The notes below the pieces were generated by a model. That model did no database searches. It was not told the DNA's origin and saw only the letters and a program-made list of their open reading frames with translations. A DNA stretch of 45,995 bases, taken from positions 1 to 45,995 of the forward strand of contig JAHITU010000002.1 in the NCBI GenBank assembly GCA_018817595.1, in the 5' to 3' direction. Positions 1,979 through 45,995 of this stretch are shown piece by piece (the stretch's first letter is position 1; the number at the start of each line of letters is the position of its first letter). Both the position numbers and the translations under genes were made by a program. The stretch is from Patescibacteria group bacterium (GTDB taxonomy: Bacteria > Patescibacteriota > Minisyncoccia > Phycocordibacterales > UBA12079).

Positions 1979-4900
1979 ATGTTTAAAAGAACTTTTTTAG
2001 ATAAAAAAACAAAAGCATCAAAGCTATTCAAACCTTGTTTGGGTACTTTTGTTATTTCTATTTTTTTAATCACTCTAATCTCATCTCCTTTTAGATTCAC
2101 ATTAGCTGATGAAATCAACCCAGAAAACGAAAACAAAGTTTTAACAACCATAAACGAAACAGCTAATTTTGTTTATTCTTTCATTAATTCAATTTTCAAA
2201 AAACAAAAAACTACCGACGAAATAATAACAAAAGATTTAACTCCAATAATTCCTGCAGATAAAGGAGACAAAACAGAATTAAATTTAATCACAACACAAG
2301 AAACCCAAGAAACTCCAACCTCAACAATTCCTACAGAAACTGCAACTACTCCCACAGCAACCAATCTTCTTCAACCATTCATCGTTACCACTTCAGGAAT
2401 CACAGAAGCAGAATTCACTAGAAGAATAAATATTTTAGAAAATTCTTTAAAAGCAGAAATTTACAGAATGGCATCACAACTTGCTCCGACTGGTTCAATC
2501 ACACCAGAGAGCAATTTTCAAGCCATTGCTCTAAGTCAAATAATCGATAACTTAGATTTAGTAACTATTTCCAGAGCTACCATCACAGGTTCTACTTTCA
2601 CTGGCTCACAAGCTACAATCACAAACCTAGCCTCAACAGATTTAACCACTACAAATTTAACTGTTTCCGGTATAAATAATTTCAACGGAATTACAAATCT
2701 TTCAAATGCTTCCTCTACTCAATTAACAGTTTCCGATAAATTATGGTTAGGAAATCTATTAACTACAGGTAATACAATTTCAGCCACTAACGACAGTGGT
2801 CTAGCTCTTTATGATAATGCCAGCAACGGAATTTTTATAGAAGATGGAGGAAATATTGGTATAGGATCAACTTCACCAGCACAAAAACTTTCAGTAGATG
2901 GAAATACCTATATCACAGGAGGGTTAGGAGTTGGTGTTACTACAACCACAGCGGGAGCGATAGAAACAAGTGGAAATGTAATAGTTGGAGGAGATTTGCA
3001 GGTTTCAGGAGATTCAATGGTAATCGGAGATACTATTTCAGATACTTTAGTAATTAATTCTTCTATCAATTCAAATCTTATTCCAGATTTAAACGCAATG
3101 AGAGACATGGGATCTCCAGCTTATTATTGGGATGATATCTATACTGATGCCCTTTATGTAAATAATTTATCAGCTGCTTCTACTACTATCTCAGGAACTC
3201 AATCTTCTCTCTTTACTATCAATTCAGATAATTCAACTTTAGATACTGAAGACATGGATCTAGTATTTTTCAGAGGAACAGTGGTTCCGAATGCTTTAAT
3301 TTCTTGGAATTCAGGGTTAGAAAAATTTGATTTCAATCAACCAGTATTTTTCCAAAATGACTCATCCACAACCACTGTGCCGTCCTTAGAGGTTCGAGCC
3401 AAAGCAGGACAAACAGCTGATGTTTTAAAAATTTCTGATAGTACTGGTGCTAGTTATTTGAATATTGATTCTAATGGAAAAGTCGGTATAGGAACAACTA
3501 CTCTCACTAAACAATTAAATCTTTCAGGAGGCTTCTATGTTGGGGGAACAGGGACTTCTACCATTGAAAATAATCTACAAGTTAATGGACAAATTCAGAT
3601 TGGAACAGGTACAGCTTACCTTACTGCTAATGAATTAAGTACTACTGGAGATTTTACAATTTCTACTCAATCAGAAGATAGCCATTTAACTTTACAATCA
3701 ATGGGAAGAGTGGGAGTAGCTACTTCCACTCCTTGGGGAGTTTTATCAGTAGAACATAATGGATCAAATGCTGGTATGCCCGTGATGGTAATTTCTGATG
3801 AAGGAGCTTCCAATGCTAGTCTTATGGTTGATTGGTTAGGTAATACCGGAGTGGGAACAAACAACCCCAGCTCTCTATTCCATGTAGGTTCATCAACCCC
3901 AACCTATTTATCTGGTTATCGAGATGCCTTCTTTTCTGGAGATGTTGAAATAGATGGTAATACTTATTTTAATGGGGCAACAAATTTCTCAAGCGCCTCT
4001 TCTACACAATTAACAGTCTCAGACAAATCTTGGCTAGGTAATTTACTAACTACAAGCAACACAATTTCAGCCACCAACGACAGTGGCGTGGCTATTTATG
4101 ATAATGCCAGCAACGGAATCTTTGTCCAAGACGGTGGCAACATCGGAATTGGGACAACCTCACCCTTCGCTAAACTCTCAGTCAAAGGAGCAGGCACAAC
4201 CACCGGCATAAACTTTCAAACCACTAACTCAAGTGATACACCACTTGTGACTGTTTTGGATTCGGGAAATGTTGGGATTGGGACGACGGCACCGGGAGGA
4301 AAACTTCAAGTATATTCTGCTAACGATGTGGATGCTATTAGCGTTCGTTCTGGTTCAAGTGGTTCATACGCAGGTTATAGTATCGGTCGTACTTCAATCG
4401 AAGGTTATCTTGGTATAGTCGCTAATACGAATAATTTTCTTACTGGTGCAGAAACTGGCAATCTTGTTTTGAAGTCAGGATCGAGCAAATTATTATTAGG
4501 AACTGGTAACTCTATAGTTATGACGATAAATAGCTCAAGCAACGTCGGGATTGGAACGACGGCACCTTCCCAACAACTTGAAATCACCGGCGACTTCGAA
4601 ATGCCCAATACCACCTTTGCCGATCAATCAGGAATAATCTACAAAGGCTCAACTCCTTTTATACATAATTTTAATTATGGATTAAATAGTGGTGGAGTGA
4701 CAACTTTAGGAAAAAATCTTTTTATTGGAGAAGGTGCTGGAAATTTGACTATGGGTTCTATTGCAACAATAGAAAATCATAGTAGTGGTAATATCGGTAT
4801 GGGTTTTAACGTTTTGAGACTACTCACTAATGGATTTAATAATACAGTCATTGGTAATTCTGCTGGAATTAATACTACTACTGGAGCGAATAATGTTTTT

Positions 4901-7900
4901 ATTGGTGAACAATCAGGTCTCAATAATACTTCCGGTCAAAGTAATGTTTTTGTCGGAGGTCGTTCTGGTTTTAGTAATACAACTGGTTTTTCAAATACTG
5001 GTGTGGGTTATGATGCTGGTTATGGACTTACTACGGCAAGAGACAATACCTATTTAGGAAATGGGGCTGGTAAATCAAACAATACAGGAGGATACAACGT
5101 GGTTATAGGAAAGAATGCTGGGGGTAGTAGTTATGGAGGGAAAACTTATGATTCAAACACTTTAATTGGTTACAATTCAGGATATGTATTAGATGGTGGA
5201 AACAATAATACTTTCTTGGGTTATCAGACTGGGAATTCTGTAACCTCAGGAGATTCTAATATTTTAATCGGTTATGATATTGACACTCCTGCAGTTGATA
5301 CTTCTAATCACTTAAACATCGGAAATACAATTTATGGGGATTTAAGCTCAGGCAACGTCGGAATTGGAACAATATCTCCTTTTGAAAAATTACATGTTGA
5401 AGGGAATATTTCACTCGGGGATACTGTCGGGAAAGAAGTTATACTTTTTGATGGTGTGGGATCTGATAATTACGGAATAGGAACAGAACAATATAATGGT
5501 CTTTGGTATACCAATATTTATGGTGGAACTAATGCAGGTATTTCTTTTAGAACTGCGGGACCTTCTGGAACAGTTTTGGCTGTGATAAAAAATTCAGGCA
5601 ACGTCGGAATCGGAACAACCTCCCCTCAATCTCTCCTACACCTAGGAGGAACACCGGGGGCTTTGAGTAGTGGTTTGACTTTTGGTGATGGAGATACTGG
5701 GTTTTATGAGGCTGCTGACGATAATCTTTATGTTACCATTGCAGGAGCTAGAAGGGGTTATTTTGGAGTGAGTGGATTTTTTGGTAATAATAATGATGCC
5801 TTTGGTCTTATGGATGAAGCATCTAGTGGGACTAATCCTACTATTATACCTCAGAAGCTTGATTTCGATACTGGTATCGGCCGAGCCGATGCCGACCAAC
5901 TCTCCCTAATCGCAGGAGGAGTAGAAGGACACAGAATTTCAGAAGATGCTGGAGTTATTACACATAGCTTGTCTGGCAACGTCGGAATCGGAACAACCTC
6001 ACCCTTCGCCAAACTCTCAGTTAAAGGAGCAGGCACAACCACCGGCATAAACTTTCAAACCACTGACTCAGCTGATAGTCCTTTGGTGACTGTTTTGGAT
6101 TCGGGGAATGTGGGGATTGGGACGGCGAGTCCGGGGAGTAGTTTAGAAATTGCTAAAAATGGAGAACCAGAGATTCGCTTAGTAAGAACAACCGATCCAC
6201 CAGTCAATGGTCTAATTTCTGCAAGTATTGGCTCTTATGTTACAGGAGGTGGTATAAATCGCAATAATGGATATATTCGTTTTATAGAAAGAAGCGCTAG
6301 CACAATACCCATTACTGATTTAGCTTTTGGGTTGGCAACGTTTAATAATCAATTACCATATGAGGTAATGAGAATAGCAAACACCGGCAACGTTGGAATC
6401 GGAACTACCTCCCCTCAATCTCTCCTACACCTAGGAGGAACACCGGGGGCTTTGAGTAGTGGTTTGACTTTTGGTGATGGAGATACTGGGTTTTATGAGA
6501 GTGCGGATGATAGGATATATATATCGATCAATGGAGCATTAAGAGCCGGTTTTACCTCTAATGCAATTTTTGCTGGAACCAATATAGATGGAAATCCAGC
6601 GATGATGTCTGAAGTTTCTTCCCCAAGTAATCCTGTTTTTGTTTTTGCTGGAGATGTGGACACAGGTCTAGGCTCCGCAGCCGCAGACCAGCTCTCCCTA
6701 ATCGCAGGAGCGAAAGAAATCGCTAGACTGACAGAAAATACAACAGAACAATTTATTATTAATCCACAAGCAGATTTAACAGGAACAGCCGCTGCTCCGA
6801 GTCTGGCTTTTGGAGATGGGGATACTGGGTTTTATGAGAGTGCGGATGATATAATGTATGTAGGTGTAGGTGGCACTAATAAAATGTTTTGGAATAATGT
6901 TGTTTTTAGTGGGACAAGTTTAACTTCACCTCAAATATCATACACAGGAGCTAGTGCTACTGTCCCTGTATTTTCTTATGCTTTTGATGGGGATACAGGA
7001 ATAGGAAGAGCAGCCGCAGACCAACTCTCTCTAATCGCAGGAGGAGTAGAAGGACACAGAATTTCAGAAGATGCTGGAGTTATTACACATAGCTTGTCTG
7101 GCAACGTCGGAATTGGGACGACGAATCCAATTACACCCCTTCATGTTGGCTATAACGGAAGTGGAAGCATTGCTACTTTTGCAAGAACAGATGCAGCTCC
7201 TTCTTCTTTAGAACTAAGTAATGCAAGTGGTATTTTTAATTTTAATTACACCGGCGGTAGCGGTGGTCTTCGTTGGCAATTAGGGGGTGTAAGTAAATTA
7301 ACGTTAGATGCGAGTGGCAACATCGGAATTGGAACAACCTCACCCTTCGCCAAACTCTCCGTCAAAGGAGCAGGCACAACCACCGGCATAAACTTTCAAA
7401 CCACTAACTCAAGTGATACACCACTTGTGACTGTTTTGGATTCGGGAAATGTTGGGATTGGGACGGATAGCCCTAATAATAAGATACAAGTTCAAGATTT
7501 AATTAATTTTGATGATACCTTACAAAATACTTCTTTAGGTAAAAATGCCGGAAATTTAGGACAGTACAATTCATTCATTGGTTATGAAGCAGGGAAAAAT
7601 ATTACTTCTAGTTGGAATACTGGGGTTGGCTGGAAAGCTCTTATGTCAGCAACAAATGCGGAAAGAAATAGTGCTTTTGGTTATTATTCTTTATTCTCTA
7701 ATTCTTCTGGCTCAAGAAATGCTAGTTTTGGCTATGTTGCTTTATCTAGTAATACTACTGGGAATTACAATACAGCTTTTGGTTCAAATGCTTTAACTTA
7801 TAATCAGACTGGTTCTTCAAATGTTGCTATTGGTCAAGAGGCTGGAAGTGGTAGCACTGGAGCATCTAATATTTCAAATAATGTTTTTATTGGAAATGCC

Positions 7901-10039
7901 GCCGGTAAAGCTATACGAACAGGTGGTAATAATAACATATTGATAGGACATCAAGCCGGAGATAGTATTACAACTGGAGCTAGTAATATTCTAATCGGAT
8001 ATAATATAGACACTCCTGCAGTTGATACTTCTAATCATTTAAACATCGGAAATGCTATTTACGGGGATTTAAGTTCAGGCAACGTCGGAATCGGCACAAC
8101 CACCCCTCAATCTCTCTTACACTTAGGCGGAACACCGGGGATTTTGAGCAGTGGTTTAACTTTTGGAGATGGTGATACTGGGTTTTATGAGAGTTCAGAT
8201 GATGTTGTAGTAATTCATCAGGGTGGTACAGATAAATGGTCAATGACAAATGGGAAAGTATCTGCAACTGACTTTAAAACAACGAGTCCTAATACTGGCT
8301 TTTGGTTAAACAATAATGTTGGTACGTCAATTTTTAGTGGAGGAACTGGAATAGTTAATTATCACGCAACAGTTGCACATAATTTCAAGGATAACTATGC
8401 TGGAAACTCTGTTATGTACATTAATTCAACTTCTGGCAACGTTGGAATTGGGACGACTACTCCTCAAGGATTATTTGCTGTAGCCACCTCAACCAACGCC
8501 TCTTTCTTTGTTGTAGACGACCAAACAGGGAACATCGGAATGGGAATAGATAATCCATCCTACCAATTACAACTTTCAACAGACTCAGCCGCAAAACCAG
8601 GAACAGCTACATGGACAGTCGATTCCGATGAAAGACTAAAGAATGTTAATGGAGACTTTACTCGTGGTTTGTCAGCTTTAGAAGGGCTTTATCCATCTTA
8701 CTTTAATTACAAACCAGACAACGAAAGAGGAATTCCATCTAATAGGGAATATGTAGGATTAATCGCTCAAGATGTTCAAAAGGTAATTCCCGAAGCAGTC
8801 AAAGAAGGAAAAGACGGTTTCCTTTCAGTTGAATCTGATCCGATTTTCTGGACAATGTTGAATGCTATTAAAGAGTTAGCTTTGAAAGTTGGCTCTGATA
8901 ATATCTCTTATAGTAAAGATACTTTGCAGGTATTAAACGACACTGGAGAACCTCAAATGAAATTGGCCTATGATCAAGAAAACTTGGCTGAATTTAAAGT
9001 GTCTGCAGTAGGGGATTTGTCTATAAGTACTGCTGGAAAAGATATTCGTTTACCTGATGATAATATGCAAATCTGTTCAGGGGGAGCTTGCCCAACAATT
9101 TCAACTCCTCAATCAGTCGTCTCTGCGAGGAGTGGAGAGGTACGCAATGACAAAGCAGTCCAGAATTTCGAAAAATTAACTAGAGGAACAGGTAACTTAA
9201 TCGTAGAAAATGTTGCTTATATTAATGGAGCCTTAGGAGTGGGAACCCCTGCCCCAGGCAGAATAATGGATGTTTACGAATCTCAATCCGATCCACAAAT
9301 GAGGATTTCTTATGACGATGATTTGTATTCTGAATTTAATGTTTCGGCAACAGGGGACTTAACCATTTCTGCATCAGGAGGAGATGTTTCTGTTTTGAAT
9401 GAAAACTTGCGAGTTTGTTCTGATGATGGTTGTCCTTCTGTTGTCAGTCAAATCCAAGACAAGGGTAATTTAGTGGTAGAAAATTCATTGTTGGCATTAG
9501 GTAATGTAGGAATCGGAGGTACAGTTTCTCCTGATTACACCTTAGATGTTCAAGGAACTCTACGAGCCTACGGCATCACCGACGCCTCCGACATCCGCCT
9601 GAAAACAAATATCCGTAATTTGACAAGGGGTCGTTCCCCTTATAGTGAGGTTACGAACGGAGGGGTGCGACCCCTAAGTCAAACTTCAGCCACCCTTCAA
9701 AACATCCAAAAACTTCGTGGTGTAAAATTTGAATGGAAAGACTCCACTTTTGGCACAGGTGATCAAATTGGGTTCATTGCCCAAGAAGTAGAAAAAGTTT
9801 ACCCAGAATTAGTTTCCACAGATAATGACGGTCTTAAATCGGTTCAATACGGAAAATTCACTGCTGTGTTATTAGAAGCTGTAAAAGACTTAATCAATTG
9901 GGGAGAAACTATCGAATATCGTTCTGCTCGCCTAGAAGACAGAACAACTCAATTAGAAAAAGAAAACGCCTCATTAAAACAAAAAACCCAATCCCTAGAA
10001 TCCCGAATCGAAGCCCTAGAAAACATTCTGAGACAATAA
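1979..10039 (+). CDS. Giant (2686 aa) surface fibre/adhesin-like protein with GNVGIGT repeats and two peptidase S74-like intramolecular chaperone domains
   Basis: N-terminal hydrophobic segment, many GN(V/I)GIGT repeats, N-x-x-x-G beta-roll repeats, S74 motifs SDERLK..VGLIAQDVQKVIPEAV and SDIRLKTNI..GFIAQEVEKVYPELV, C-terminal coiled coil. Confidence 0.85.
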   Translation: MFKRTFLDKKTKASKLFKPCLGTFVISIFLITLISSPFRFTLADEINPENENKVLTTINETANFVYSFINSIFKKQKTTDEIITKDLTPIIPADKGDKTELNLITTQETQETPTSTIPTETATTPTATNLLQPFIVTTSGITEAEFTRRINILENSLKAEIYRMASQLAPTGSITPESNFQAIALSQIIDNLDLVTISRATITGSTFTGSQATITNLASTDLTTTNLTVSGINNFNGITNLSNASSTQLTVSDKLWLGNLLTTGNTISATNDSGLALYDNASNGIFIEDGGNIGIGSTSPAQKLSVDGNTYITGGLGVGVTTTTAGAIETSGNVIVGGDLQVSGDSMVIGDTISDTLVINSSINSNLIPDLNAMRDMGSPAYYWDDIYTDALYVNNLSAASTTISGTQSSLFTINSDNSTLDTEDMDLVFFRGTVVPNALISWNSGLEKFDFNQPVFFQNDSSTTTVPSLEVRAKAGQTADVLKISDSTGASYLNIDSNGKVGIGTTTLTKQLNLSGGFYVGGTGTSTIENNLQVNGQIQIGTGTAYLTANELSTTGDFTISTQSEDSHLTLQSMGRVGVATSTPWGVLSVEHNGSNAGMPVMVISDEGASNASLMVDWLGNTGVGTNNPSSLFHVGSSTPTYLSGYRDAFFSGDVEIDGNTYFNGATNFSSASSTQLTVSDKSWLGNLLTTSNTISATNDSGVAIYDNASNGIFVQDGGNIGIGTTSPFAKLSVKGAGTTTGINFQTTNSSDTPLVTVLDSGNVGIGTTAPGGKLQVYSANDVDAISVRSGSSGSYAGYSIGRTSIEGYLGIVANTNNFLTGAETGNLVLKSGSSKLLLGTGNSIVMTINSSSNVGIGTTAPSQQLEITGDFEMPNTTFADQSGIIYKGSTPFIHNFNYGLNSGGVTTLGKNLFIGEGAGNLTMGSIATIENHSSGNIGMGFNVLRLLTNGFNNTVIGNSAGINTTTGANNVFIGEQSGLNNTSGQSNVFVGGRSGFSNTTGFSNTGVGYDAGYGLTTARDNTYLGNGAGKSNNTGGYNVVIGKNAGGSSYGGKTYDSNTLIGYNSGYVLDGGNNNTFLGYQTGNSVTSGDSNILIGYDIDTPAVDTSNHLNIGNTIYGDLSSGNVGIGTISPFEKLHVEGNISLGDTVGKEVILFDGVGSDNYGIGTEQYNGLWYTNIYGGTNAGISFRTAGPSGTVLAVIKNSGNVGIGTTSPQSLLHLGGTPGALSSGLTFGDGDTGFYEAADDNLYVTIAGARRGYFGVSGFFGNNNDAFGLMDEASSGTNPTIIPQKLDFDTGIGRADADQLSLIAGGVEGHRISEDAGVITHSLSGNVGIGTTSPFAKLSVKGAGTTTGINFQTTDSADSPLVTVLDSGNVGIGTASPGSSLEIAKNGEPEIRLVRTTDPPVNGLISASIGSYVTGGGINRNNGYIRFIERSASTIPITDLAFGLATFNNQLPYEVMRIANTGNVGIGTTSPQSLLHLGGTPGALSSGLTFGDGDTGFYESADDRIYISINGALRAGFTSNAIFAGTNIDGNPAMMSEVSSPSNPVFVFAGDVDTGLGSAAADQLSLIAGAKEIARLTENTTEQFIINPQADLTGTAAAPSLAFGDGDTGFYESADDIMYVGVGGTNKMFWNNVVFSGTSLTSPQISYTGASATVPVFSYAFDGDTGIGRAAADQLSLIAGGVEGHRISEDAGVITHSLSGNVGIGTTNPITPLHVGYNGSGSIATFARTDAAPSSLELSNASGIFNFNYTGGSGGLRWQLGGVSKLTLDASGNIGIGTTSPFAKLSVKGAGTTTGINFQTTNSSDTPLVTVLDSGNVGIGTDSPNNKIQVQDLINFDDTLQNTSLGKNAGNLGQYNSFIGYEAGKNITSSWNTGVGWKALMSATNAERNSAFGYYSLFSNSSGSRNASFGYVALSSNTTGNYNTAFGSNALTYNQTGSSNVAIGQEAGSGSTGASNISNNVFIGNAAGKAIRTGGNNNILIGHQAGDSITTGASNILIGYNIDTPAVDTSNHLNIGNAIYGDLSSGNVGIGTTTPQSLLHLGGTPGILSSGLTFGDGDTGFYESSDDVVVIHQGGTDKWSMTNGKVSATDFKTTSPNTGFWLNNNVGTSIFSGGTGIVNYHATVAHNFKDNYAGNSVMYINSTSGNVGIGTTTPQGLFAVATSTNASFFVVDDQTGNIGMGIDNPSYQLQLSTDSAAKPGTATWTVDSDERLKNVNGDFTRGLSALEGLYPSYFNYKPDNERGIPSNREYVGLIAQDVQKVIPEAVKEGKDGFLSVESDPIFWTMLNAIKELALKVGSDNISYSKDTLQVLNDTGEPQMKLAYDQENLAEFKVSAVGDLSISTAGKDIRLPDDNMQICSGGACPTISTPQSVVSARSGEVRNDKAVQNFEKLTRGTGNLIVENVAYINGALGVGTPAPGRIMDVYESQSDPQMRISYDDDLYSEFNVSATGDLTISASGGDVSVLNENLRVCSDDGCPSVVSQIQDKGNLVVENSLLALGNVGIGGTVSPDYTLDVQGTLRAYGITDASDIRLKTNIRNLTRGRSPYSEVTNGGVRPLSQTSATLQNIQKLRGVKFEWKDSTFGTGDQIGFIAQEVEKVYPELVSTDNDGLKSVQYGKFTAVLLEAVKDLINWGETIEYRSARLEDRTTQLEKENASLKQKTQSLESRIEALENILRQ
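9118..9165 (+). repeat. CGTC repeat in frame inside the giant protein gene
   Basis: cgtctctgcgaggagtggagaggtacgcaatgacaaagcagtccagaa closely matches the intergenic copy at 10049-10096. Confidence 0.85.
9625..9676. repeat. REP-like doublet in frame inside the second S74 domain
   Basis: aggggtcgttcccct ... aggggtgcgacccct, similar to the RAYT REP core aggggtgctacccct. Confidence 0.7.
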
Positions 10040-10048
10040 AAATCTTCC

Positions 10049-10096
10049 CGTCTCTGCGAGGAATGGAGCGTAGCGAAATGACGAAGCAGTCCAGAA
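10049..10096 (+). repeat. CGTC repeat upstream of the GIY-YIG gene
   Basis: cgtctctgcgag...gacgaagcagtccagaa. Confidence 0.85.
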
Positions 10097-10123
10097 TTTT
10101 AAAAAAATAACCCCAAAACCAAA

Positions 10124-10423
10124 ATGAAATCTGAAAAAATTCCCTGTGTATATATTCTTGCAAACAAAAGGAATGGAACTTTGTACACAGGAGTAACCTC
10201 TAATTTACAAAAGAGGATTTTTGAACATAAAAATAATTTAATTGATGGTTTTACTAAAAAACACAATATTCATAAATTAGTATATTTTGAAACAGGAGAA
10301 TCGATGGAAGGTGCAATCCAAAGAGAAAAACAAATCAAAGGTGGTTCAAGAAAAAATAAACTGAAATTAATTGAAGACAAAAACCCACAATGGAATGATT
10401 TATTTGATAAATTATTTAATTAG
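10124..10423 (+). CDS. Small stand-alone GIY-YIG nuclease (YhbQ-like)
   Basis: VYILANKRNGTLYTGVTSNLQKRIFEH, FTKKHNIHKLVYFE, AIQREKQIK, NPQWNDL. Confidence 0.92.
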   Translation: MKSEKIPCVYILANKRNGTLYTGVTSNLQKRIFEHKNNLIDGFTKKHNIHKLVYFETGESMEGAIQREKQIKGGSRKNKLKLIEDKNPQWNDLFDKLFN

Positions 10424-10426
10424 ATT

Positions 10427-10668
10427 TCTGGATCGCCACGTCAAGAATTTAATTTCTCGGAAATTAAATTCTTTCCTCCCGAAGACGGTTTACCTTCGAC
10501 AAACCGTTACGAAAAACAAAACTTTTCGTCTTTGCGAGCGTAACGCAGTGAAGCGAAACAATCCAGAAATTTATCATCTCTGCAAGAGATACGACAGCTT
10601 GCCCGCCCCTGCCTACCCACGCCTGCTGGCGCGCAGGGGCAGGCAGGGATGAGGAGGGAAGCAATCTC
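10427..10668. repeat. Cluster of three CGTC-type repeats downstream of GIY-YIG
   Basis: Minus copy tctggatcgcc...cgaagacgg (10427-10488), plus copy cgtctttgcgag...aatccaga (about 10527-10567), degenerate copy catctctgcaag...gaagcaatctc with a nested GC-rich cctgcc hairpin. Confidence 0.8.
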
Positions 10669-10731: not shown

Positions 10732-11046
10732 ATGGAAACAAAAATAATATTTTTTGATGAATCTATAAAAAAATTTATTTCTAAATTAGAAAAAAGCACC
10801 ATTGCCAAGGTTCTTAAAACAATAGATCTTTTAGAAAAATTTAATTTTAAATTAGGATTACCTCACTCAAAGAAAATTGATAAAAATTTGTTCGAATTAA
10901 GAATTTATGGACAGCAGAAGATTCGTATATTTTATGCTTTTTATAAAGAAGATATATTTTTATTGCATATTTTTGTTAAAAAGACGAACAAGATACCTTT
11001 AAATGAATTAAAATTAGCTAATTCAAAATTAAAACAATTGCAATGA
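10732..11046 (+). CDS. RelE/ParE-family (HigB/Gp49-like) toxin
   Basis: LGLPHSKKI..LFELRI, RIFY, LLHIFVKKT; lies upstream of an XRE HTH gene. Confidence 0.88.
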   Translation: METKIIFFDESIKKFISKLEKSTIAKVLKTIDLLEKFNFKLGLPHSKKIDKNLFELRIYGQQKIRIFYAFYKEDIFLLHIFVKKTNKIPLNELKLANSKLKQLQ

Positions 11047-11066
11047 TATCACATATATGTTATATT
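11038..11066 (+). promoter_or_regulatory. Internal sigma70 promoter and operator for the antitoxin
   Basis: ttgcaa-N17-tatatt overlapping the near-palindrome atatcacatatatgttatat; ATG at 11073 lies 6 nt after the -10. Confidence 0.55.
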
Positions 11067-11072
11067 AATATT

Positions 11073-11339
11073 ATGAATGAATATAAACAATTTAAAAAAG
11101 AAATATTGAAAGATAAGGAGGTTAAAAAAGAGTACGAAAAACTTGGTGTAGAGTTTACTTTGATTGAAAAGATTATTGAAGAAAGAATAAAAAAAGGTTT
11201 AACTCAAAAAGATTTAGCTAAAGCTATTGGTACAAAACAATCAGCTATTTCAAGATTTGAATCTGGAGATAGTAATCCTACTTTAGCTTTTATTGGAAAA
11301 GTTTCCAATATTTTAGGTCTAAAATTAAGTTTAGAATAG
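11073..11339 (+). CDS. XRE-family HTH antitoxin (HigA-like); start revised from 11043
   Basis: GLTQKDLAKAIGTKQSAISRFESG..NPTL. Confidence 0.88.
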   Translation: MNEYKQFKKEILKDKEVKKEYEKLGVEFTLIEKIIEERIKKGLTQKDLAKAIGTKQSAISRFESGDSNPTLAFIGKVSNILGLKLSLE

Positions 11340-11531
11340 ATAATAAAAAATCAAAACCCCGCCGAAGCGGAGTTTCTCGGAGCTTCCAAAGAAGCACTAA
11401 TAACTAAATAATAACAAAGCTCAAAAAAAAAGCAAGTTAATTTAATTTTAAACCAATGAAAAAAAATCCTAACCCTCCTACTCCTAATATTTATCCTCTC
11501 AACCACCACCTCTATTTTTCCGTCTTTGCGA

Positions 11532-15626: not shown

Positions 15627-15696
15627 CGTCTTTGCGAGGTGAGTGGGATTTTGGTTTTTGCAAAAACCAAAATCCCACTCAACGAAGCAATCCAGA
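15627..15696 (+). repeat. CGTC repeat carrying a perfect 42-bp palindrome
   Basis: cgtctttgcgagg-[tgagtgggattttggtttttg|caaaaaccaaaatcccactca]-acgaagcaatccaga. Confidence 0.85.
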
Positions 15697-23749: not shown

Positions 23750-23876
23750 TCTGGATTGCCATGATTCAATTTTTTAACAAAAAATTGAATCTCGCAAAGA
23801 CGGATTTTGAGAAGCAAAATCCGTTACGAAAAGCAAAGCTTTTCGTCTCTGCGAGCGATAGCGAAGCAGTCCAGAA
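23750..23876. repeat. Inverted CGTC doublet with nested hairpins
   Basis: tctggattgcc..ctcgcaaagacg / cggattttg..caaaatccg / acgaaaagcaaagcttttcgt / cgtctctgcgagcgatagcgaagcagtccaga. Confidence 0.85.
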
Positions 23877-25725: not shown

Positions 25726-25797
25726 CGTCTTTGCGAGGCGAGTGTTTTTTTATTTTTTTAAAAAAAATTAAAAAATCACTCAACGAAGCAATCCAGA
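25726..25797 (+). repeat. CGTC repeat with T/A-tract palindrome cargo
   Basis: cgtctttgcgaggcgagtg-tttt...aaaa-cactcaacgaagcaatccaga. Confidence 0.8.
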
Positions 25798-25983: not shown

Positions 25984-27252
25984 ATGATACAAAAACTACA
26001 AGATGTGACCCCACCAAAAAGATCTATTCATGATATTCCAGTACCAAATGGAAAGCCAAGAAAATCAATAACTTCGCATGTGAGATCTGCAAACAAAAAA
26101 TCAACTTCTTTCATTAAAAAAGTTATTATTGCTTTAGTTTTAGCAGTGATTGCTTTTGTATTATTTATATCTCTGGCTGCTTCTAGTGTGGAGGTTTCTA
26201 TAGTGCCTAGACAACTAGAAAAAAGAACAGATGCTTCTTATATCGCTGTTTCGGACAATGAAACAGGAGGAATCCCTTTTGACATTATAATGTTGGACAA
26301 AACTTCAGTAAAAGCTGTAGCAGTCACAGGTGAAGAAAAAGTAACAGAAAAAGCTCGAGGAGAAATAATTATTTTCAATGATTTTGATTCTAGTAGTCAA
26401 AGATTGATAAAAAATACACGTTTTGAAACTCCGGAAGGGTTGATTTTTAGAATTCAAAATTCAGTTGTTGTTCCTGGACAAAAAGAGGACAGTACAGGAA
26501 AAATGATTCCGGGTTCTATCGAGGTGACTGTATATGCTGATCAGCCCGGAGAGGAATATAACATAGGATTAAAGGACTTTACTGTTCCGGGATTCAAGGG
26601 TTCTGACAGATATGATAAATTTTATGCTCGTTCCAAAACGGAAATGACAGGAGGATTTGAAGGAGTTAAAAAAGTTGCTTCAGATGAAGATATTATAAAT
26701 ATGCAAACTCAATTAGGAACAGAATTAATTTCTGGGCTAACTGAAGAGATAAAGACACAAATTCCTGATGGTTTTATCTTATACGATGACGCTATTTTTT
26801 CGGAAACAAAATTTTTAGGAACTAAGAATTTAGATGATGGTGTAGGTGTAGAAGAAAAAGGCTCTGTTTATGCAATTATTTTTAACAAATCTAATTTAAG
26901 TAAATACGTAGCCGAGAATGTTATTGATGACTATGATGGAGCTGATTTGATAATTTCTAATTTGGAAGAACTAGATTTTGAAATAAAAAATAAGAAAGAT
27001 GTGACTCCTTGGGTAGAGGGAAGATTTGTATTCTCTCTTAAGGGTCAATGTAACTTTGAATGGCTTTTTGATGAGGAAGCTTTAAAGAATGATTTTGTTG
27101 GTAAAGCAAAAGATACCACTAGTGAAATATTATCTCAATATCCTAGTATTGATTCTGCAGAAGTTGTAGTTAAACCTTTTTGGAAAAATTCTTTTCCTAG
27201 AAGTACTAGCAAAATAGAAATAATTAAGAATTTAGAAAAGGAAAATATCTAA
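25984..27252 (+). CDS. Membrane-anchored conserved protein, baseplate J/gp47-like region (start revised from 25939)
   Basis: One TM helix, KARGEIIIFN..TRFETPEGLIFR..PGSIEVTVYADQPGEEYN; the upstream ATG lies inside a repeat. Confidence 0.6.
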   Translation: MIQKLQDVTPPKRSIHDIPVPNGKPRKSITSHVRSANKKSTSFIKKVIIALVLAVIAFVLFISLAASSVEVSIVPRQLEKRTDASYIAVSDNETGGIPFDIIMLDKTSVKAVAVTGEEKVTEKARGEIIIFNDFDSSSQRLIKNTRFETPEGLIFRIQNSVVVPGQKEDSTGKMIPGSIEVTVYADQPGEEYNIGLKDFTVPGFKGSDRYDKFYARSKTEMTGGFEGVKKVASDEDIINMQTQLGTELISGLTEEIKTQIPDGFILYDDAIFSETKFLGTKNLDDGVGVEEKGSVYAIIFNKSNLSKYVAENVIDDYDGADLIISNLEELDFEIKNKKDVTPWVEGRFVFSLKGQCNFEWLFDEEALKNDFVGKAKDTTSEILSQYPSIDSAEVVVKPFWKNSFPRSTSKIEIIKNLEKENI

Positions 27253-27402
27253 CAAAATAAGGCTATTTGCATAAATTTAATTTCCATAAAATTGAATTTT
27301 TAATTTCACTTTGTCACTGATTTTTTATATATTTTATTTAAATTAAAAAACACTTGAAAAAAGAGAGGGTTTTTGTTAGAATAACTCTCGTTACTTTGAA
27401 GT

Positions 27403-27755: not shown

Positions 27756-27816
27756 GAAATAATTTTGGATTTAAATTATTTCAAATTAAAAATGATAAAT
27801 TATAAATTTTAAATTA

Positions 27817-27929
27817 TGGACTGCTTCGTCGCAGGCTCCTCGCAGAGACGAATTTTACAAAGTAAAATTCGTTACGAAAAGCTAAAGCTTTTCGTCTTTG
27901 CGAGGAGGTTACGACGAAGCAATCCAGAG
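27817..27929. repeat. Inverted CGTC doublet between rpmJ and rpsM
   Basis: tggactgcttcgtc..ctcgcagagacg / cgaattttacaaagtaaaattcg / acgaaaagctaaagcttttcgt / cgtctttgcgagg..gacgaagcaatccaga. Confidence 0.85.
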
Positions 27930-42594: not shown

Positions 42595-42686
42595 TTACGA
42601 AAAGCTAAAGCTTTTCGTCTTCGCGAGGAGTTCACTTTCCCAACTTTTGAAAAAGTTGGGAAAGTGAAAGACGACGCGATCCAGAG
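42595..42686 (+). repeat. CGTC repeat with a 38-bp palindrome cargo, between the T-box terminator and aspS
   Basis: acgaaaagctaaagcttttcgtcttcgcgagg-[ttcactttcccaactttt-ga-aaaagttgggaaagtgaa]-gacgacgcgatccagag. Confidence 0.85.
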
Positions 42687-44094: not shown

Positions 44095-44243
44095 ACGGAT
44101 TTTGGCTTCGTCAAAATCCGTAATGAAAAGAGATTGCTTCGTGCTTCGCAATGACGGTTCGCTGGAAGCGAACCGTTACGAAAAGCAAAGCTTTTCGTCT
44201 TTGCGAGGAACAGAGCGTAGCGGAGTGACGAAGCAATCCAGAA
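44095..44243. repeat. Inverted CGTC doublet after aspS
   Basis: gagattgcttcgtgcttcgcaatgacg / cggttcgctggaagcgaaccg / acgaaaagcaaagcttttcgt / cgtctttgcgagg..gacgaagcaatccaga. Confidence 0.85.
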
Positions 44244-45735: not shown

Positions 45736-45995
45736 ATGGCAAATTCAAGAATTTACAAAACTTTGAGTCATTCCACATGGCGTTGTGAATATCATGTAGT
45801 TTGGACACCAAAGTATCGAGGTAAAGTACTTGCCGATAGGTATATTAAAGCTGAATTGAAAAGAATATTCAAGCAAATAGCCAAATGGAAAAAATTAAAT
45901 ATACTAGCGTGGCATGTAGGAGATGAACATATACATCTCTATCTCTCTATCCCTCCTAAATATTCAGTTTCCTACACTATGAATATTATGAAAGG
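45736..45995 (+). mobile_element. tnpA: IS200/IS605-family transposase, 5' part, truncated by window end (not in ORF track)
   Basis: MANSRIYKTLSHSTWRCEYHVVWTPKYRGKVL..DEHIHL; last 141 nt equal the first 141 nt of the window. Confidence 0.95.

Follow-up and report, generated by a model that had tools for sequence, protein, structure and literature searches.

The locus described here, a stand-alone GIY-YIG nuclease gene bracketed by CGTC-tagged repeats, lies in a 45,995-nt stretch of DNA from a groundwater member of the Patescibacteria (contig JAHITU010000002.1 of assembly GCA_018817595.1), the whole of which is referred to below as the window. Its closest described counterpart is the Ssn family of single-domain GIY-YIG proteins (CDD cd10448), 94 amino acids (aa) long in N. 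meningitidis, whose genes are flanked by repeats known as NTS or SRM that start with CGTC and end with ATCYRG (Chenal et al., Nat Commun 2025; PMC11893778). As set out in the main text of that paper, Ssn proteins bind and cut the flanking repeats only as single-stranded DNA (ssDNA), on the tagged strand and 5' of the repeat, without action on double-stranded DNA or RNA, and the role demonstrated for them in Neisseria is the modulation of natural transformation. The repeats themselves recall the CGTC-tagged repetitive extragenic palindromes (REPs), which were said in an earlier survey to 'lack a dedicated transposase' (Di Nocera, De Gregorio and Rocco 2013; PMC3733652), a question left open to which the description of Ssn provides an answer. 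The pairing of enzyme and repeat is already published, and the window locus is a further example of it rather than a new system: a lineage-specific version of the Ssn/SRM pair, in a group that is named neither in the main text of Chenal et al. (2025) nor in those of its supplementary files that were searched (12 of 14).

The window is contig C7 of a metagenome-assembled genome (MAG) from the Candidate Phyla Radiation (CPR) that comprises 0.8 Mb in 34 contigs, with a G+C content of 31%. Judged from sequence and context, its 99-aa gene (10124-10423, + strand) very probably encodes an Ssn-family nuclease, and the CGTC family dispersed in the same genome would be the cognate SRM. The gene encodes a single GIY-YIG domain (PF01541, E 2.9e-15) of the 'GSR' subtype defined below (GGSRKNK after REKQIK) and, as the initial annotation had noticed, stands between repeats. 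The upstream SRM-type repeat (10049-10097, +), with a CGTCT tag, a 4-bp closing stem CTGC/GCAG and the tail TCCAGA, ends 26 bp 5' of the ATG. The first base of the inverted copy (10426-10487, -), which has its tag outward and a core consisting of a 28-nt AT-rich perfect hairpin (fold z -3.5), lies 3 bp past the TAG stop. Two further copies follow. The inverted copy is at the same time the left half of a head-to-head doublet, whose spacer (10488-10526), two small hairpins around a CGTTACG centre, has a layout conserved in most of the 15 doublets of the genome, and whose right half is the third copy (10527-10569, +; closing stem with one mismatch, TTGC/ACAA). The fourth, degenerate copy (CATCTCTGCAAG ... 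GAAGCAATCTCT; 10575-10668, +) has CATC as its tag and carries a GC-rich palindrome insert at ~10595-10640.

This arrangement is unusual in the genome. Among 796 crude open reading frames (ORFs), inward-facing copies within 80-150 bp of both ends are found for a single one, the ssn-type gene, and any copy on both sides within 100 bp for two. The gene-flanking pair, which spans 438 bp, has its tags outward, a geometry seen in none of 25 adjacent pairs of copies. Since so few ORFs are bracketed and no adjacent pair shares the geometry, the bracketing is not an effect of repeat density. A second small GIY-YIG gene of the genome (C2:27072-27284, -) was considered as cognate enzyme and set aside, being of a different subtype (36% identity over 67 aa) and having no CGTC flanks. 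This 88-aa gene lies immediately upstream of a tRNA gene, with a partial copy of the tRNA 5' end on its other side.

The protein itself points in the same direction. PF01541 covers residues 8-80 of the 99 and is the only Pfam family matched, a search of NCBIfam returned no specific family, and homologues are mostly 95-100 aa long. BLASTP aligns it at 56% identity (E 1e-38) with a Neisseria-genus protein of 94 aa whose gene has an exact NTS immediately behind it; the E-value lies below the threshold (E < 1e-10) by which homology to SsnA is defined in PMC11893778. That this protein is equivalent to the one assayed from N. meningitidis is inferred from its length and flanking repeats. A survey of 61 genomes of the genus, centred on an N. 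lactamica locus found by its NTS pattern, gave homologues of the window protein in 19 (E <= 2.3e-25). Those of 94 aa have exact NTS copies directly beside them; with the window protein as query, N. lactamica NS19 and N. mucosa yielded no Ssn homologue. Six residues (Y10, Y21, R31, H35, E68 and N87) are invariant in an alignment of the window, CPR, Sphingopyxis and Neisseria-genus proteins, including the catalytic residues of the GIY-YIG domain (both tyrosines, the arginine and the metal-binding glutamate), so that the catalytic core is intact. Other identities fit less well. Proteins of the UPF0213/YhbQ type (PDB 1zg2, 1ywl) are, like the window protein, stand-alone GIY-YIG domains of ~90-107 aa, but the window protein is only weakly similar to them (E 1.9e-4 to 1zg2; 22% identity to the UPF0213-type small GIY-YIG protein of N. 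lactamica, which has no NTS flanks). GIY-YIG homing endonucleases combine the nuclease with a C-terminal DNA-binding domain and usually lie inside an intron or intein, whereas the 99-aa protein has no second domain and scores 23.2 bits against a cut-off of 56 with TIGR01453. Nor is it a REP-associated tyrosine transposase (RAYT), as it has a GIY-YIG match only and the Y1_Tnp genes of the genome lie elsewhere.

The repeat family is well defined. With <=1 mismatch the 5' motif is found 16 times in the window (mean of 100 shuffles, 0.06), and with <=2 mismatches the 3' motif is likewise found 16 times, where shuffling predicts 1.82, so that the dispersed family of about 20 copies announced by the initial annotation is real. 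The whole genome has 116 copies, and in 84 a 3' frame can be recognized. Each consists of a CGTCT tag, a 4-bp closing stem, an internal loop, a variable inner part and a TCCAGA tail. The asymmetric internal loop is conserved (GAG on the 5' side, CGAA on the 3' side), while the inner part varies freely, from none to a 40-nt perfect hairpin, and total lengths cluster at ~30, 47, 70, 95 and 118 nt. The closing stem is perfect in 71 of the 84 full copies and occurs in three compensated versions: TTGC/GCAA (34), CTGC/GCAG (26) and TCGC/GCGA (10). A stable ssDNA fold is predicted for the copies whose inner hairpins are long (z -3.5 to -7.7). Adjacent copies no more than 400 bp apart form 15 head-to-head and 10 same-direction pairs, none with tags outward. 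The spacers of the head-to-head doublets are structured and mostly ~40 nt long, and those at 10488-10526, 23803-23843 and 27851-27892 have in common the two small hairpins around a CGTTACG centre. Since the spacers are themselves conserved, the whole doublet is a nested palindrome of 110-200 nt that resembles a REPIN. No consistent rule relates repeat orientation to gene direction or GC skew.

Compared with Ssn/NTS, the window system shares a single-domain GIY-YIG protein of ~94-100 aa, an oriented repeat on both sides of the gene (CGTC tag, paired core, TCCAG tail), a repeat present ~100 times in the genome and a host that encodes ComEC. It differs in that the protein has GGSRKNK in place of the conserved W..R.W and so lacks two tryptophans, in that the tag is CGTCT rather than CGTCA, in a core made of a 4-bp stem, an internal loop and a variable inner hairpin rather than an 8-9-bp perfect hairpin, and in its host, a Patescibacteria MAG. 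The repeat thus resembles NTS in tag, tail and first paired bases but differs in its core. The families CGTC-1 to -4, as presented in the text of PMC3733652, likewise have a CGTC/TGTC terminal tag, A:T at the first stem positions and a CCA-type tail, and are found in high copy number, mostly as head-to-head dimers, with occasional in-frame copies in genes. Their stems are however 8-9 bp long with loops of 4-5 nt, where the window repeat has a 4-bp stem followed by an internal loop. Stem length apart, the window repeat has the tag, tail, copy number and head-to-head dimers of the CGTC-tagged REP superfamily. The string TTGCGAG is absent from the main text of PMC3733652, and in the literature searched (text, not figures) no earlier description was found of the TTGCGAG class or of Ssn in Patescibacteria. 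The exact 28-nt NTS consensus of Neisseria occurs in at least 129 stretches from genomes labelled as many phyla, including Proteobacteria, Dehalococcoidia, Planctomycetes, Nitrospirae, Verrucomicrobia and Peribacteria.

If the repeats are the substrates of the enzyme, they should accompany its relatives, and they do. The SRM string of PMC11893778 is too narrow for these repeats and was replaced by a frame detector (tag, 4 nt, their reverse complement, then TC[CT]) that gives ~0.07-0.1 false hits per kb. It was applied to 29 loci of the best homologues, each from a different CPR genome, and to 71 metagenome loci with enough flank. A tagged frame lies within 150 bp of the gene in 27 of the 29 genome loci (on both sides in 15) and in 66 of the 71 metagenome loci (on both sides in 49). 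The density is 5.75/kb in the flanks against 0.58/kb elsewhere in the locus for the genome set, and 6.97/kb against 0.70/kb for the metagenome set, an enrichment of ~10-fold. Such enrichment beside homologues was the check proposed in the initial annotation. The usual layout, by the strict detector, is a repeat (+), the gene and a repeat (-) with the tags outermost (12/29 genome and 38/71 metagenome loci); hairpin cores vary between genomes while tag and tail remain constant. Two other procedures were abandoned: a Smith-Waterman search for inverted flanks misses loci, the window's own included, whose two copies carry different inner hairpins, and the generic pattern GTCWYN{14,44}ATCCAR was uninformative in 81 genomes of the class, with a background as high as the signal (controls 10-60). 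In two unrelated records, L244 (~2490) and L160/L162 (Sphingopyxis witflariensis), the repeat nearest the gene has in place of its 5' half a sequence, similar in the two, that ends ...GTTGCACTT.GT.TGTGAA... and looks like the terminal repeat of an insertion sequence (IS) inserting into the repeat loop.

Gene and repeat also tend to occur in the same genomes. The pattern GTCWYTGCGAR has 73 hits in the window's own genome (control 0) but 0-2 in each of seven genomes of the same order, none of which has a strong ssn. Among the genomes of the phylum with at least 20 hits, 21 of the 25 others have ssn at E <= 1e-20, to be compared with a background of ~110 in 400 sampled genomes (hand count). The Ssn/SRM pairing is thereby extended into the CPR, where about a quarter of the 400 sampled genomes have a strong homologue and many have several, up to 11. 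One CPR contig (G356:C21, 7-52 kb) carries six ssn-type genes in a stretch of 45 kb.

Enzyme and repeat also vary together. Subtypes were defined by the residues after REKxxK, namely W type (xWxRxWK, including the Neisseria-genus proteins) and GSR type (x[GSA]SRxxK, including GGSRKNK), in a set of 114 distinct proteins. W-type genes are accompanied by perfect-hairpin repeats in 70 cases and by GCGA-class repeats in none (no frame detected in nine), GSR-type genes by GCGA-class repeats in 25 cases and by perfect hairpins in none (no frame in one), and the nine proteins with other motifs by perfect hairpins in five cases and the GCGA class in four, none being without a frame. Each of the two subtypes thus pairs with its own repeat class without exception in this sample. 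The same is true of the window's genome, in which only CGTCT/GCGA-class frames were found and neither an NTS-like hairpin family nor a W-type ssn. GCGA-class repeats also lie beside a GSR protein of Sphingopyxis, so the pairing holds across phyla. In a quick maximum-likelihood tree, however, a clade of 31 rows (25 GSR) is separated from one of 83 rows (78 W) with an SH-aLRT support of 96, which makes this essentially one deep split and not many independent events. Within the GSR clade, the CGTCT tag is found almost only beside the window protein's nearest relatives (66-81% identity). Together with the 56% identity to NTS-flanked proteins and the enrichment in the flanks, this co-variation supports the proposal of the initial annotation that the stand-alone GIY-YIG protein is the cognate enzyme of the CGTC family.

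Several observations weigh against this assignment. The SRM string of PMC11893778, in our own implementation, has no hit in the window's locus and finds the flanks of only 5 of the 29 relatives. Short copies of the repeat have no predicted stable ssDNA fold (z ~0), unlike NTS hairpins, so the repeat may be recognized differently. As far as is visible, the characterized Ssn enzymes are of the Neisseria (W) type, and the activity of the GSR type is predicted. Four repeat-rich genomes (G008, G245, G254 and G309) have no strong ssn hit, meaning either that repeats can persist without the gene or that the assemblies miss it. Finally, related genomes are not independent and the association counts overstate the evidence, the figures being descriptive only.

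A different enzyme might in principle serve the CGTC repeats, with the GIY-YIG gene merely sitting among them. The genome has three RAYT-like genes as well as IS200-like fragments, and a CGTC copy (421-488, -) lies ~390 bp upstream of the RAYT-like gene at 877-1635. This gene had been cited in the initial annotation as the heart of a RAYT/GTAG module, and rightly so: it matches Y1_Tnp (E 2.4e-8) and has GTAG hairpins at 822, 1639 and 1729. These hairpins, from a family of 18 hits, are its own flanking repeats, the other two RAYT-like genes have no CGTC copy within ~700 bp, and the bracketing of the GIY-YIG gene has no counterpart elsewhere in the genome and is kept across phyla. Mobilization of the CGTC repeats by RAYT-like Y1 transposases is thus highly improbable, and RAYT/REP (REPIN) systems are of interest rather as a parallel. 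They too consist of a single-copy nuclease gene bracketed by inverted copies of a short tagged palindrome found throughout the genome, the doublet is the common unit in both, and by analogy recognition of hairpins in ssDNA might be shared. Nevertheless, RAYTs belong to the HUH Y1 transposases, which work through covalent intermediates, and have GTAG-tagged REPs as their substrates, whereas the window enzyme is a GIY-YIG hydrolase, and the two modules are separate in the window, the RAYT/GTAG one at 822-1747. The ORF at 877-1635 matches Y1_Tnp only from profile position 38 and contains a fourth identical GTAG hairpin (at 1064); the gene may be interrupted or start later than the ORF suggests.

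It could also be argued that the repeats act as RNA (terminators, stabilizers or leaders) and that their position beside the nuclease gene reflects its regulation. Most copies are intergenic, those within 100 bp of ORFs being downstream in 31 cases and upstream in 17, and the upstream copy of CPR relatives stops 2-30 bp short of the start codon and is therefore probably part of the transcript. However, of the copies between co-directional genes 36 share the sense of these genes and 30 oppose it, so that orientation is not tied to transcription, the repeats are not followed by a T-run, no Rfam family reaches its gathering score anywhere in the window, and SsnA is reported in the text of PMC11893778 not to bind RNA. 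The freedom of orientation, the lack of an Rfam match and this property of SsnA leave an RNA-level role very unlikely. In a public RNA run of low depth, no exact piece falls on the gene.

A more serious alternative is that the block of repeat, gene and repeat is an autonomous IS-like element, nicked at its outward tags by the nuclease and copied to new sites, of which the gene-less repeats are non-autonomous passengers; this would be the mobilization system of the initial annotation in its literal sense. An analogy with IS is raised in the discussion of PMC11893778, and sharply bounded duplicated blocks, an indirect sign of mobility, do exist. CPR genome G356 has two blocks 4.4 kb apart that are 99.8% identical over 410 bp, both among the six ssn-type genes on contig C21, and G190 has two on different contigs that are 96.8% identical over 379 bp; in both genomes the similarity stops 0-7 nt from the outer tags (TGTCAT... 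/ ...ATGACA). Metagenome contigs L225 and L236 have in common a 352-bp unit that starts exactly at GTCATT, and further pairs of blocks break at or inside repeats. The frequent occurrence of ssn in multiple copies in CPR genomes would fit as well, as would a repeat copy lying in frame in the giant ORF at 1979-10039. The five closest metagenome relatives (66-81% protein identity) have the gene and its repeats in common with the window and no synteny beyond, which favours mobility but is weak evidence either way. On the other hand, the block is single-copy in the window's own genome, no target-site duplication or empty site was seen, and breakpoints at repeats could equally reflect recombination between repeats. 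The gene-less doublets are head-to-head, opposite to the gene-flanking geometry, and are hence not simple deletion derivatives of the block. No GIY-YIG enzyme is known to join DNA, which also counts against such an element. On balance, an autonomous IS-like block appears doubtful. In contigs from public runs, exact pieces bridge 9951-10191 (X4) and 10365-10645 (X2), which shows that the same junctions occur in two more groundwater samples. These low-depth contigs contain no joint that skips the block, but their cover is too thin to speak on excision.

Returning to the Ssn/SRM reading, the nuclease would recognize the oriented, tagged repeat only as ssDNA and nick it just 5' of the tag. Its ~116 genomic sites might become accessible when exposed as ssDNA during replication or, as the genome encodes ComEC, during ComEC-mediated DNA uptake, and the gene with its two outward-tagged repeats could be a semi-selfish unit, copied as one block. 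Since no covalent intermediate is formed when GIY-YIG nucleases hydrolyse DNA, any spread of the repeats would need host repair or replication and not strand transfer of the transposase type. A tentative extension of this scheme, which we regard as possible rather than probable, is that Ssn comprises at least two specificity classes co-evolving with repeat architectures, W..R.W proteins pairing with NTS-like hairpins and GSR proteins with a repeat made of frame and internal loop that tolerates any inner hairpin, and that the block is a discrete unit still being copied in CPR. If true, a hydrolytic GIY-YIG nuclease would seed a REP-like repeat family without a transposase.

The gene for the nuclease of this genome's CGTC family is now located, and what goes beyond the printed record found is confined to the two-class co-variation and the sharply bounded duplicated blocks. 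The former points, by the cleanness of its split, to a segment of the protein that may read the repeat core, and could help in choosing Ssn enzymes with new ssDNA specificities. The latter provide concrete loci for the question of whether Ssn spreads its repeats.

The remaining copies in the window illustrate the range of the family. The doublets that had been placed near 421, 23750, 27817 and 44130 exist, all of them head-to-head with facing tags ~40 nt apart. Three are gene-less: 23753-23875 (copies 23753-23802, -, and 23844-23875, +), 27815-27928, just upstream of rpsM, and 44131-44242, the left copy of which has a CGTCA tag. The copy at 421-488 lies beside a long-armed variant (506-620), also found at 11521 and 11808, in which the tag frame runs into the arms (CCCAGCACTTTG ... 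CAAAGTGCTGGG) and these enclose an AT-rich stretch of ~70 nt. Solo copies, all on the + strand, are found at 15627-15696, with a long perfect inner hairpin (fold z -7.7), at 25726-25797, with a long AT-rich inner hairpin unlike the preceding one, and at 42616-42685, with the compensated closing stem TCGC/GCGA. The in-frame copy (9118-9164, +) is translated as ~16 extra residues of the 2686-aa product of the giant ORF, and a paralogous segment of the same protein lacks them.

The GC-rich palindrome nested in the degenerate CGTC copy at 10595-10640 belongs to a distinct family (arms of the CCTGCC...GGCAGG type), which also occurs on contig C2 at ~26730-26790 and 27320-27345, beside and within the tRNA 5' end that is partially duplicated there. 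The repeat cluster is followed directly (10732-11339) by a gene for a Gp49/HigB-like toxin (PF05973, E 1.5e-20), with which an HTH_3 antitoxin-like gene overlaps by 4 bp. Lastly, fragments of an IS200-like Y1 transposase are found at both ends of the contig (2-268, E 4.6e-24; 45775-45993, E 3.5e-20) and probably belong to a multi-copy IS that broke the assembly.

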